Shown: positions 1-59,781 of the stretch, piece after piece
How positions within the stretch are numbered: position 1 is the first letter of the stretch
Layout: each line of letters starts with the position of its first letter
Assembly (NCBI GenBank): GCA_964016885.1
Contig: OZ024741.1
Coordinates: 133,300,001-133,364,000, forward strand
Reading direction: 5' to 3'
DNA: 64,000 nucleotides
Origin: Eledone cirrhosa
Lineage: Eukaryota
Program-made: the position numbers and the translations under genes
The notes under the pieces: generated by a model
Databases searched by the model: none
The model's input: only the letters and a program-made list of their open reading frames with translations
Told to the model about the DNA's origin: nothing

Positions 1-57
1 GCAAAGAATGGCTGCTTTCACCCTTAACAGGATCTTTTGAAACTTTATTATTATTAC

Positions 58-4590: not shown

Positions 4591-4643
4591 TGTGTAACGT
4601 TTTTCAAAATATTTACTTCTGCGTTCACAGATTGATTTTTTTT

Positions 4644-4694
4644 AGTTTCAGAAGATCCCGTTAAGGGTGAAAGCAGTAATTCTTCGCTTAAACT
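4644..4694 (+). ncRNA. hammerhead-like motif with CAGAAGA core (F2)
   Basis: agttt-CAGAAGA-t-ccc-gttaa-ggg-t-GAAA-gca-gtaattctt-cgc-TT-aaact. Confidence 0.6.
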
Positions 4695-5369
4695 TTAATC
4701 TGTTGTTTTAATATATATATATAATTATATATTCGTGTACAGATATTTGTGCATACACAATAACAAAATATAGACAAACGTATTTATTTCACGAGGCTCG
4801 ACAGCAGCAAAAACAACAACAAAATAGAAAGAGAAGGCAATTACGCTTTTGAAAAATCTTAATGGAAAATTATTTGCCTATTCACCCAAGGCGACTTCAT
4901 TTTTTATTACGACTTCTGCATCAATTGGTGAACATACGACGAAGCTGTTTCAGAAAGGAGGGATAAACAAGCCAATCTATGTTTAGAATCCCGAGCAACG
5001 CCGGGCCATTCTGCTAGTGGACACTAAAAGGATGTTTCAGTTTGACTGTTTTGCTCCGATTTCCATATATAAATATATATATATATATATATTTATTAAA
5101 ATAACAGATTAAAGTTTAAGCAAAGAATCGCTGCTTTCACCCTTAACGGGGATTTTAGTCTTAAAATTTATTATTATTACTATATATATACACACACACA
5201 TATATATATATCCATCAAATATATATACATATATATATATATATATTGGGTGGTTCAGTAGATTCGTGTTTTACTGAGGAAGTTACAAAAATCACCACTT
5301 TATGCTATGACAGAGTGTATATATTAAGCACAAAACGAATTTTCACATTAAGGTTTTTATTGATTATGC

Positions 5370-10087: not shown

Positions 10088-10302
10088 ATGTAATTGTTTT
10101 CACCGCTCCAAATAATGACGTATTATTTTCGTTTTTTTTTCGTTCTTTCCATGAATCAAGTATCATCTTCCTGTCTTCCTTCGGTTGCAACGTTTTTCGA
10201 AATATTTACTTCTGCATTCACAGATTGATTTTTTTAGTTTCAGAAGATCCCGTTAAGGGTGAAAGCAGCGATTTTGCTTAAATTTTAATCTGTTATTTTA
10301 AT
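10088..10302 (+). mobile_element. F2 island with CAGAAGA hammerhead-like motif (10236-10284)
   Basis: Matches 27730-27960 (-); agttt-CAGAAGA-tccc-gttaa-gggt-GAAA-gca-gcgattt-tgc-TT-aaatt. Confidence 0.75.
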
Positions 10303-10338
10303 ATATATATATATATATATAAACCACCTCTATTCTTT

Positions 10339-16012: not shown

Positions 16013-16072
<60 letters not shown>

Positions 16073-16115
16073 TAAAATAACAGATTAAAGTTTATTTCAC
16101 ATCTATTATTATTAT

Positions 16116-16209
<94 letters not shown>

Positions 16210-16252
16210 TAAAATAACAGATTAAAGTTTATTTCACATCTATTATTATTAT

Positions 16253-16569: not shown

Positions 16570-19364
16570 CATCATCATCATCATCATCATCACTGTTTTA
16601 CGTCCGTTCTTCCACGCTAGCTTGGGTTAGACGGGGGTGTCCTGTTGTGGGCAGTGTCCGGTCGGTTGGCCTTGTCTTGCTCATACGGGAACTGATTCTC
16701 CCTTGATTTCTACAGCTGGATGCCCTTCCTAACACCAACCTCATTTACAGTGAGTGCTGGGTGCTTTTTTTCCGTGGCGCTTACACGTCCACTTTACAGT
16801 GTGGGCTGGGTGCTTTTTAGCCGTGGCACCTCCACGACCACCTTGCAGTGGGAGGGTGTGGGGGCATATTGTCTATATGCTTCAGCCTCGGCTTGTAGCC
16901 ATGGGGGGGTCGGGTCTTCTGTATTACTGTGTGACGCCAGAGGTCACGGTCTTGTATCATCTCCTTTGAGAGGTGTAATTGGGTAAGGTTGGCTTTTATC
17001 ACCTCATCCCAGGTCTTCTTGGGTCTCCCCACTCCGCGGTTTCCATCGACTTCTAGTGCTCTACACCTTTTTATGCAGCTGTCATCCTTCATACGCATTA
17101 CATGTCCATACCAATGCAATTGCCTCTCCTACACACAGCATTTGATTCCTCTTATGCTCAGTCTCTTTCTCAATTCATTTATGCTTTGCCGTTCGCGTAT
17201 ATTACTATTACACATCCATCGGAGCATGCAGGCTTCGTTTTTTTCTAATCTACGCAAGTCTTTCACAGACAGCGCCCAGGTCTCACTACCATGTAACATT
17301 GCTGTTCGTATACACGCATCATACAGTCTGCCTTTCATTATGGGGGAAAAGCCTTTTGCAGCTAACAGTGGCAGTGGCTCCCTTAACTTCTTCCATCCCG
17401 TTCTTACCCTAGTTATTGTACTTTCCGAACACCCACCTCCGCTGCTAATTAGGTCACCTAGGTAGCAGAAGCTGTCTACTGTTTCTACAGAGCCCTCCCA
17501 GAGTTTGGTGGTGCTTGTTTCCTGTGGCTGTTTGCTGCTTGCTGTCCCAACACAGCTGCTACATGTGAAGCCTACATTCTTAGTTAAGCTTCCTGAAATC
17601 CTGCTACATCTCTTGTGTACCCATTGTTTGCATTTGGGGCAGAGAATGGAGTTCCTACCTACAGCTTTCCTACATACTGAGCAAGGCCATTTCCCTGAGG
17701 GCATCTGGGTTCTGTTTTCTCATCTACTTACAAGGACCTTAGTCTTTGTCAGGTTGACTTTGAGACTCTTTCTTTCTAGTCCCTGCTTCCAAGTTTGGAA
17801 TTTCTTCTCTAGTTCTACCATAGATTCAGCTATAAGTGCGAGGTCATCTGTATACAGGAGTTCCCACGGGCATCCGATCTTAAACTTCTCCGTTATTGCC
17901 TGCAGGACTATGATGAACAGGAGAGGGCTAAGAACAGAGCCCTCGTGGACACTGACCTGTACGCTAAATTCTTCGCTAATCCTAACTTTGCTGACTGCTC
18001 CCCTATACATGGCTTGTACAGCTTTCACATCCTTTGGTATGACACCTTCTAGTATTACCTGGTTAACAATACGTGTGGATATGGTGTGACCGACCGACCC
18101 AGATGCCTTCAGCATCTCGGCAGCTATACCTGATGGACCGGTTGCCTTCCCAGTCTTCATATCTTTGATTACCTTACTTACTACGCTGCTGCTGACTTGT
18201 TCTGCTGGCCCCTCTATAGGGTCTACTTGGAGTAGGGTCTCTTCTTCCCATGCATTCTCCTCATTTAGTAATCTATCATAATGGCTCTTCCATGCATCTT
18301 TCTTCTCAGCACTTGTGAGGGCAAGCTCACCTTTATCATTCCGGATACACTTCTCTCCAATGACATCACAATTCTCTCTGACACACTGCCTCGCAATCTT
18401 GAACACCTCCTGTTTCTGGTCCTCACGTTGCAAAACATGCTTGAATTTTCTATCCTCTGCTTCCCTCCTAGCTAAGTATACTTGTCGCCTAGCTTCCTTG
18501 CTGGTCTCTATGTAATGTACCCTGCTACCCCCGTTCTTCCATTCTTTCCATGCCTGTCTCTTGGCCTTAACTGTCTCATCTACCTTATTGTTCCACCACC
18601 AAGTCACTCTCCTCCTGCCTATGGTCTTACTCCAGGCACAGATCTCATCCGTCACCTTTAGTAACTTATATTTTAGGAATTCCCTGTGCTCTTCTACATT
18701 GAATGGCTCTATCTGTTCTTTTTTACTGTCATAGGCGTTGATTAAAATATCTTTAAATCTGTTACTGGCTGAGGAGTCTTTCAGCTTCCAGATTTTTCTT
18801 CTCCAGGTTGGCTTCTGTTTCCTGGTTCGTCTAGTTCTGACCGTGAGGTCGCTGACAACTAAGCTATGTTGGGAGGTACATTCCTCACTAGGGAAGGCTT
18901 TTGTGTTTACGACCGTCCATCTGTCACGTCCTCTGATGAGGATAAAATCTATCTGACTAGAATGCTCCTCTGATCTATAGGTGATCAGGTGGTTGTCGGG
19001 TTTTTTGAAGGTTGTGTTACATATCGACATGTCATTGGCGTCGCAGAATTCTAGAAGCCTGAATCCTTCTTCATTTCTTGTGCCAACCCCATGGCCTCCA
19101 TAGAAGCTGTCACGGTGTTTACCTATGTGTCCGTTAAAATCTCCTGCAACGATTAGGAAGTCATTGTCGTTTGTTAGAGCAGTAGTGTGCATTAGGGACT
19201 TGTAAAACCTTTCCTTAAGTTCGTCTGGCAACCCCCATTGGGGTGCGTAAGCTGATATTATTGTGGTAATTGTTTTATTCAGGACTAGTCTGAGTTTAAT
19301 GATTCTTGCATTCACCCTGTTCACTGAGATTACCTTATCTGCCCACTTGTCAGCTAGTAGCATA
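16570..19364 (-). mobile_element. RTE LINE family B (AP endonuclease, internally deleted RT, PHD-type finger, 3' UTR)
   Basis: SAYAPQ, AGDFNGH, QIDFIL, SQH endonuclease motifs; RT deletion at ~18030 (VIPKD|VKAVQAMY); LLYTDD; frameshift ~17715; tail ends in (gat)n. Confidence 0.93.
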
Positions 19365-24196: not shown

Positions 24197-24352
24197 TTAA
24201 TATAGAAATGGCTCTACAGGACTAGAACTGCTTCATTCATGAAAACAGTTCTAGTCCTGTAGAAACCATTTTTATATTAATTATTTATACTCTGCTGTGT
24301 ATTGAGTACTTTACTTACTGTGGTTACACCCGATTGAACCTGGGATAAACTT
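24197..24352 (+). mobile_element. mini foldback cassette (arms within 24197-24280) plus ~70-nt tail
   Basis: ctacaggactagaactg / cagttctagtcctgtag; same family as 38402-38754. Confidence 0.8.
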
Positions 24353-27640: not shown

Positions 27641-28200
27641 GTAATAATAATAAATTTGAAGACTAAAATCCAAAGAGGGCTCGATAAGATAAATATATAT
27701 CAAATATATGAGAACGGTATAGCAAATATTTATTAAAATAACAGATTAAAGTTTAAGCAAAGAATCGCTGCTTTCACCCTTAACGGGATCTTCTGAAACC
27801 TAAAAAGTCAATCTGTGAACGCAGAAGTGAATATTTCAAAAAACGATGCAACCGGAGGAAGACAGTAAAACGATACTTTGGTTCGTGGAAACGTTCCCTG
27901 GCAAAGAACGGGGAAAAAACGAATATAATACGTCATTATTTGGAGCAGTGAAAAACAATTACACGCAAAGACAAAATCACGTTTATGGTATAAAAGAAGT
28001 CGTAGACTAATATTCTATTAGGTGGTTCATAGAGACGTTCTCTGGCAATGAACGGAAAAAACGGAGATAATACGTCATATGTGGAGCGAGGATAACAATT
28101 GCACGCAATGACAAAACCACGTAAAATGTATAACTGAAGTCGTAGACTAAAATTCTAACTAGGAAACCGAATGATTCTCGGCTTCAGAGTTAAGAATAAA
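27641..28200 (-). mobile_element. F2 element, longest copy: ~140-bp tandem unit x2, CAGAAGA hammerhead-like motif (27750-27800), full ~90-nt tail
   Basis: Contains the segments seen in the shorter F2 islands; ends ...caaatttattattattac(TA)n on the minus strand. Confidence 0.8.
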
Positions 28201-28201
28201 G

Positions 28202-28303
<102 letters not shown>

Positions 28304-31695: not shown

Positions 31696-31785
31696 TGTAT
31701 ATGTATGTGTATGTATATATATATATATATATATATACGTATATGTATATATATACATATATATATATGTATATACATATATATA

Positions 31786-32082
31786 TTTATTAAAATAACA
31801 GATTAAAGTTTAAGCAAAGAATCGCTGCTTTCACCCTTAATGTGATCTTCTGAAACTAAAAAAATCAATCTGTGAACGCAGAAGTAAATATTTCCCAAAA
31901 CGTTGCAACTGAAGGAAAACAGGAAGATGATACTTTGGTTGTGGAGACGTTCCCTGGCAATGAACAGAAAAAAAGCGAATATAATACGTCATTATTTGGA
32001 GCGGTGACAACAATTACATGCAAAGACAAAACCACGTTTATGGCATAAATGAAGTCGTAGACTTCAAATTTATTATTATTAC
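31786..32082. mobile_element. F2 island: inverted arm (31786-32061, motif 31807-31857 -) joined to 21 nt of tail in the opposite orientation
   Basis: Direct comparison with 27641-28200. Confidence 0.8.
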
Positions 32083-38401: not shown

Positions 38402-38750
38402 CGTTATTCCGGGTTGAATCGGAGGTAACCACAGTAAGTAAGGTACTCAATACATAGCAGAGTATAAAAGTTTTAATATAGATGAGATTCTACAGGACTA
38501 GAACTGTTTCATTCATTAGAAATCATCACTGCCTTCCTCAGAACTAACATATTAATCAATAACTGTCAAACTGTTTCTGTGGCAACAGCAGGGATTTGGT
38601 GTAAAACAAAAAAACTGCTACACATGAACTTGAAAATCATTTTTCACTAAAATATCTCACAATATTTCAAACTCTTTAATGAGGATCATTTTAAAATTGA
38701 TTTCTAATGAATGAAACAGTTCTAGTCCTGTAGAATCTCATCTATATTAA

Positions 38751-45520: not shown

Positions 45521-45641
45521 TATATATATATATATATATACATATATATAAATGAAAGGTATAGAAAGTATTGTAGCAAGAAGCCAACAGTATTCCATAA
45601 TATATATAAGTGACTATAGCGTCAAAATGAGAAAATAGTTA

Positions 45642-45766
45642 TAAAATAACAGATTAAAGTTTAAGCAAAGAATCGCTGCTTTCACTCTTAACGGGATCTT
45701 CTGAAATATATATTTGATTTATATTTATCCTTATCGAGCCCTCTTTGGATTTTAGTCTTCAAATTT

Positions 45767-45780
<14 letters not shown>
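45642..45780. mobile_element. F2 island: inverted arm (motif 45658-45707 -) joined to ~74 nt of tail in the opposite orientation
   Basis: Direct comparison with 27641-27800. Confidence 0.8.

Positions 45781-59535: not shown

Positions 59536-59781
<246 letters not shown>

Follow-up and report, generated by a model that had tools for sequence, protein, structure and literature searches.

A putative type I hammerhead carrying A in place of U at core position 4 in a Hydra-clade Penelope-like element of Eledone cirrhosa

Judged from its sequence, repeat family F2 of Eledone cirrhosa is the pseudo-LTR (pLTR) and 5' leader of a Hydra-clade Penelope-like element (PLE), and its hammerhead is of the Hydra PLE type with a lineage-wide U4A change, that is, built like a type I hammerhead but without the U at core position 4. 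With modest confidence, we read it as a slowed natural U4A variant whose fold would still be selected and whose RNA is likely copied mostly uncut. Why PLEs carry hammerheads remains a question, and F2 represents a natural experiment, being a highly successful family in which the fold is intact and the core carries a change that should cripple cleavage, while the genome itself supplies natural U4 copies as ready controls.

We analyzed a window of 64,000 nucleotides (contig OZ024741.1, positions 133,300,001 to 133,364,000), the F2 features of which are collected in Table 1. Positions along F2 are given as offsets, with the first base of stem I at -5 and the predicted cut at 41. We counted the word CAGAAGA 15 times in the window, where 5.3 would be expected, and none of 100 shuffles reached as many. 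As an earlier note on this DNA had claimed, it is present in all five copies that span the core (4649 and 10241 on the plus strand; 27795, 31852 and 45703 on the minus strand), and the damaged copy at 1-44, which also carries G5A, has A4 as well. The motif string quoted in the same note is the F2 family consensus and not the copy at 27750, which has gguuu instead of aguuu; each window copy departs from the consensus somewhere. The pairs of stems I, II and III that were said to form are possible, but the hammerhead is not the minimum-energy fold and the stems are not intact in every copy: stem II is broken in copy 31807 and the last pair of stem III in copy 4644, copy 10236 has a deletion in loop III, and copy 45658 is cut at offset -3, leaving a stem I of 3 bp. 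Overlooked at that stage were a second helix of 9 bp beyond stem I, which can form only in RNA starting upstream, and a 3.3-kb protein-coding retroelement that ends in F2. The retained part of the intron contains two 135-bp tandem repeats, and in the duplicated F2 ends the similarity breaks off one base upstream of the predicted cut.

Table 1 Features of F2 in the analyzed window, in window positions
Feature	Position	Strand	Basis or remark
Type I hammerhead fold, A at core position 4	27750..27800	minus	sequence
Stem I	27800-27796/27754-27750	minus	sequence
Core	27795-27789	minus	U10.1-U11.1 mismatch beside stem II
Stem II	27787-27785/27779-27777	minus	sequence
GAAA core segment	27775-27772	minus	sequence
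Stem III	27771-27769/27759-27757	minus	sequence
Position 4, A in place of U	27794	minus	copy reads and genome-wide counts
Predicted cleavage site after CUU	27754..27755	minus	from hammerhead numbering; copy ends show no clear pile-up
Inferred capped transcription start of F2 (offset -5, first base of stem I)	27800	minus	copy ends
Distal helix of 9 bp (27816-27808/27749-27741) prolonging stem I past a 7-nt U-rich bulge	27741..27816	minus	
PLE 'tail' of ~85 nt, optional 3' extension	27642..27725	minus	
Retained 3' part of the 750-nt GT-AG intron of the element's 3' UTR	27898..28211	minus	acceptor ~27898
Entire 5'-truncated F2 insertion between (TA)n tracts	27642..28211	minus	
F2 copy, A4, short 3' end	4593..4718	plus	
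F2 copy, A4, short 3' end	10090..10308	plus	
F2 copy, A4, broken stem II	31783..32070	minus	
F2 copy cut at offset -3 (45629-45706), head to head with inverted tail (45707-45778)	45629..45778	minus	
F2 copy, A4 and G5A, 5' end at offset -5	1..44	minus	
Inverted F2 fragment without first half of core	5089..5179		
Two duplicated 30-nt F2 ends (16065-16094, 16202-16231)	16065..16231	minus	

A complete unit of the host element is found at locus L081 and is composed of a tailed pLTR, a 202-nt leader without ATG, an ORF, a 3' UTR, a pLTR and (TA)n; the tail is here part of the 5' leader before the ORF. The frame at this locus has 641 aa and ends at a premature stop. The single ORF encodes a reverse transcriptase (RT) together with a GIY-YIG endonuclease at its C terminus, with the motifs YRDD and IY..YTG in this unit and VY..YIG in other copies. 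The protein has 567 homologues at E≤1e-20, and a Pfam scan of it returned no significant family. According to the clade description in PMC8557442, Hydra PLEs are defined by an RWK motif, DKT replacing DKG, and a CxCx5C linker; the F2 ORF has RWR at 37, DKT at 115 and CNCRNRVDC, the CxCx5C linker, at 564. By eye, CDLC..E..N..CKH, i.e. CxxC and CxH around a conserved E and N with no CCHH, was recognized unedited in L088 and L097. Like Hydra-clade PLEs, F2 copies show pLTRs, inverted 5'-truncated partners, a tail and (TA)n targets. They often form head-to-head pairs, adjoin (TA)n and end at one of two points, either short or with the ~85-nt tail, which is present in 38 of 100 copies and is longer than the usual 30-40 bp. 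Two 3' ends downstream of the hammerhead, with and without tail, and AT-rich targets are also described for the Poseidon PLE of Anolis (PAc), although its core is canonical and overlaps the ORF start, whereas that of F2 has A4 and lies ~200 nt before the ATG (PMC11167929). We rejected F2 as a non-LTR retrozyme: such repeats, as described in PMC7229834, likewise contain an animal type I hammerhead but are short, tandem and non-coding, while F2 copies are dispersed or inverted and form the ends of an autonomous RT/EN element. A metagenome scan for F2 relatives found none and thus supplied no relative from outside together with its flanking DNA. Other PLE families in the same genome (L089, L098, L189, L179) have 34-54% amino-acid identity to the F2 ORF.

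The hammerheads of Hydra-clade PLEs listed by Craig et al. 2021 (PMC8557442 File S2) share with F2 the type I topology in the pLTR, stems II and III of 3-4 bp, the (TA)n target and the ORF motifs. The earlier note had pointed out the U-U closing pair and the true stem III of F2. Both are ordinary in this group, U10.1-U11.1 closing stem II in 14 of the 25 families listed there, and this leaves A4 alone as unusual. All 26 Hydra rows (25 families) in that list, found with a canonical descriptor, read ctga, whereas the F2 core reads CAGANGA and is otherwise canonical; two F2 core words were not found in the supplement of that paper. F2 further differs from the listed families in its 9-nt loop III, distal helix, ~85-nt tail and 750-nt 3' UTR intron. 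Natural variants with a single departure from the conserved core are known (U3-A8, A6C, U4C and U15.1-A16.1), but we did not see U4A among those taken from PMC3088659, PMC4209133 and PMC7151607, and the viroid U4C variant is, unlike A4 in F2, not fixed in ~20,000 genomic copies (PMC3088659). The literature searched, which lies apart from the work of Lunse et al. on PLE hammerhead variants that could hold U4 variants, yielded no report of a natural U4A core.

Genome-wide, position 4 of F2 is A, not U. Within 3.0 Gb searched for F2 copies, 19,717 exact 30-base matches were obtained, which have A in 19,509 cases (98.9%), U in 91 and C or G in 117. Copies chosen by their flanks gave A4 in 30 of 30 young ones, and 27 A, 1 T and 2 gaps among 30 of 44 old ones. 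Old subfamilies chosen by a different 3' flank showed, by eye, 92 A, 4 U and 4 G in 100 listed of 131. The change therefore was in the master elements, as had been proposed, since it dominates the exact matches and also the older subfamilies, which are 21% different upstream. In seven further repeat families that bear hammerheads, 51 of 51 copies carry U4 (1.05 Mb of loci, position 4 left open).

A looser U4 pattern matched 1,184 times in the genome. A canonical U4 sister subfamily was rejected as a candidate, as 17 of 20 stretches were head-to-head junctions at the core near-palindrome or without the native upstream sequence, and for the same reason most of the loose matches are not hammerheads. 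U4 copies are inversion junctions or nested in the young clade, where nine long ones fall at several places when position 4 is masked. The split between this clade and nine old copies is 100/100; the placement of U4 needs 6 changes, at least two of them forced by starred branches. Three copies at L095 and both arms at L119 suggest that a U4 template was occasionally copied, and to our knowledge A-to-I editing cannot yield U4. Up to ~1,000 insertions (L101-L115, L120; genome-wide) are perfect head-to-head palindromes joined at the core near-palindrome; one strand of each carries U4 and the opposite strand A4. Three old G4 copies with common loop letters were noted by eye (G000:C4:85146478, C4:190937036, C5:24996439), behind which there was possibly a minor G4 master.

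The 3' UTR of the element contains a 750-nt GT-AG intron (L081:5834-6583) that ends ~100 nt before stem I and has a second form of 718 nt. Genomic copies are both retained and precisely spliced, with four loci for one donor and one for the second (L099, L286, L253, L162, L297; L075, L076 and L099 are one locus). A further row, L012, proved not to be a splice, and the joint was also present in one contig of sequencing run X2. The spliced copies show an RNA intermediate, fix the RNA strand and show that transcripts read into the 3' hammerhead.

Divergence within F2 spares the hammerhead apart from its unpaired positions. When 52 old copies are set against 30 young ones by majority letter, the differences number 0 of 54 at paired or core positions, as opposed to 6 of 22 at unpaired positions (Fisher P 3e-4) and 43 of 203 at upstream positions (Fisher P 2e-5); in the tail 13 of 95 differ, some of them artefacts of short ends. 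For 30 of the 52 old copies the core letters had been fixed in the selection, and the flank-only set yields the same majorities. Affected are N7, the bulge and the two loops II and III, loop II in its length too; N7 and both loops vary further among old subfamilies. C3, G5, A6, G8, A9, G12, A13, A14, A15.1-U16.1 and H17 are the majority in 30 young and 30 old copies. The subfamilies do not differ at the remaining 11 core bases (P 0.075 taken alone), as expected if catalysis still matters. A covariation check within F2 found none, with at most one double change per pair, so that the pattern at paired sites is invariance and not proof of pairing.

The hammerhead fold lies 2.5-5 kcal/mol above the best fold in intact A4 and U4 copies alike, so prediction alone decides little. 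Stem I has a predicted probability of 0.01-0.11, folding z-scores range from -1.4 to +0.1, and the programs predicted the hammerhead neither for U4 copies nor for a canonical family. In these models A4 favours a misfold: it completes a 5-bp pairing with U11.1-A15.1 that would hide G12-A15, the probability of this pairing being 0.40-0.59 for three A4 copies that are intact, 0.10 and 0.24 for two that are damaged, and 0.00-0.03 for natural U4 copies. An Rfam search gave no hammerhead match for an A4 copy or a natural U4 copy, and for the whole window only microsatellite-driven matches among the best 150 of 299 listed. That F2 is missed by standard searches, another claim of the earlier note, thus holds for descriptors that demand CUGA, although Rfam misses the natural U4 copy as well.

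The ends of F2 copies point to where the RNA begins. A non-T base directly before stem I (position -6) was found in 2,177 copies, and 28 of 30 of these that we inspected have true 5' ends at offset -5 with unrelated sequence upstream. The base before stem I is G in 54 of 100 listed versus 26% expected (P 4e-9); for ~15 of the 28 true ends, by eye, this G is unexplained by the partner arm. Tallied by coordinates, the first 100 exact matches on C1 include 7 with their end at -5 (8 by eye), compared with 0.25 per neighbouring position (P 1e-8). About 10% of F2 copies stop exactly where stem I begins, in most cases with an additional G. For L1, an untemplated G at a pyrimidine/purine start has been taken as copied cap (PMC9341517), and the pile-up at -5 with an extra G points to a capped transcription start at this base. 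F2 RNA likely starts there, and the extra G would be the copied cap. This would place the hammerhead at +1 of the message, the ORF lying behind a 46-nt capped leader that a cut would take off, and provides a concrete model in which cleavage equals cap loss. A second cluster of 5' ends at offset -8 (4 of 100; L092, L321, L327 and L333, three with an extra G) is possibly a second start. Contig depth in X4 rises ~ten-fold near the inferred start; contigs can show neither start nor level, X4 is not recorded as RNA, and we give this rise no weight. Of the runs examined as contigs (X1, X2, X4, X5 and X6), X5 and X6 yielded 3-10 contigs and were not counted as evidence of other hosts.

Traces of cutting are slight. 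At the predicted cut 174 copies have 5' ends versus 130 at a control position four bases upstream, and after by-eye removal of deletions and substitutions the ends at the cut are ~2.7-fold over this single control (24/30 x 174 vs 6/15 x 130). Of 100 listed inversion junctions, 10-11 join, by eye, at the AAA of the cut and 9 at the AAA of the core; in 30 loci, 5 junctions lie at offset 41 and 6 at offset 48. The excess is attributable to A-run microhomology at inversion junctions, and weak cleavage may be behind some of the ends. Capped-type ends are several-fold commoner than ends at the cut, with the two patterns differing in stringency. Copying might bypass cut RNA altogether, so that the end counts set a bound on which templates were used and not on the chemistry. 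The canonical families have too few copies (17 and 36) for the same footprint comparison.

On the reading as a slowed variant, successive master copies of the F2 element all carried A4, and their capped RNA would begin with the first stem I base. Slow cleavage, or none, is predicted for the U4A ribozyme, and reverse transcription would mostly have used uncut RNA. Because cleavage would strip the capped leader, a slowed core would keep the message translatable. The fold may persist because it serves as a structured signal, or through a low level of cleavage assisted by protein, and would adjoin two RT start sites producing the short and tailed ends. Hammerhead mutants of PAc insert normally in vitro, so cleavage is not required there (PMC11167929), and PLE hammerheads are described as slow in vitro (PMC4209133; PMC6765202). 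In the hammerhead, U4 contacts the A6-N7 phosphate, and U-U at 10.1/11.1 is the best tolerated mismatch (PMC3088659). The earlier note had framed the choice as one between a natural core variant and a catalytically silent fold, which is the right pair, with the evidence leaning to slow or silent over efficient cleavage.

A natural U4A ribozyme with a useful cleavage rate, reached perhaps only in the presence of the PLE protein, is possible though rather unlikely. It would remove the capped leader as a brake on expression, the cut RNAs being degraded without genomic trace. The unchanged stems and remaining core across the diverged subfamilies fit such an enzyme, as do the surplus of ends at the cut, 2-3-fold relative to one control, the cleavage of the PAc hammerhead only with protein (PMC11167929) and a natural viroid U4C whose activity is lowered yet biologically sufficient (PMC3088659). 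It is opposed by a type III mutational scan in which single mutants of the CUGA turn all have low activity (PMC9901934), by the competing pair predicted for A4, by the predominance of capped-type ends, and by U4 copies that re-arose and were copied (L095, L119) without taking over. In that case, a working U4A at +1 of a capped mRNA could be a tuned decapping switch, the lineage having given up the uridine turn for a slower, protein-gated core that was kept through several amplification waves. If F2 does cleave, the known core is widened and CUGA-based searches miss whole families.

We find it improbable that the motif is a dead relic whose 76 bases are conserved as DNA (initiator plus downstream promoter) or as a sequence-specific protein site, and not as a fold. 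It does cover +1 to +51 of the inferred transcript, and the old subfamilies read TCAGTT at the start, which we take to resemble the initiator consensus. The lack of covariation, the conservation of the neighbouring -40..-21 region and the tail between subfamilies, and the G4 copies with their possible master would also agree with a DNA element, and Penelope has an internal Inr/DPE promoter (PMC2377424). However, it is exactly N7, the bulge, loop III and loop II (the latter also in length) that changed, and nothing about a DNA element would make it spare both strands of four helices. Very unlikely is the retention of A4 as a 3' splice site (poly-U then CAG) within the core, by which splicing would switch the ribozyme. 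The sequence resembles an acceptor and the intron of D. virilis Penelope ends at helix I (PMC4209133), but the spliced F2 copies use an acceptor ~100 nt upstream, no joint at -3 or +3 was present among the matches listed, and copies piled at -5 lack a common upstream exon. Chance likeness to a hammerhead, for which the missing Rfam match and the folding z-scores could be cited, is scarcely credible and already largely refuted by an element location and layout identical to those of the published Hydra hammerheads (PMC8557442) and by divergence confined to loops.

Further hammerheads were observed in the window. Family A (24234-24260, 38510-38730; L054, L131, L263), for which an ORF was not found, has a canonical U4 hammerhead in the layout of F2, with U-U, 3-bp stems II and III, and variation in stems I and II. 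Seven of its 12 copies end near the start of stem I, and it perhaps shares the start rule of F2. At least four further repeat families have canonical hammerhead cores (4458, 45419, 13843, 15652, 15827, 8197, 26583, 1550), some of them with splice-donor-like words 40-60 nt upstream. Repeated fragments at 17850, 20365, 30253 and 40077 resemble what we take to be RT motif 5 of an RTE-type LINE, and ~59655-59730 reads like what is presumably an alpha-tubulin exon.
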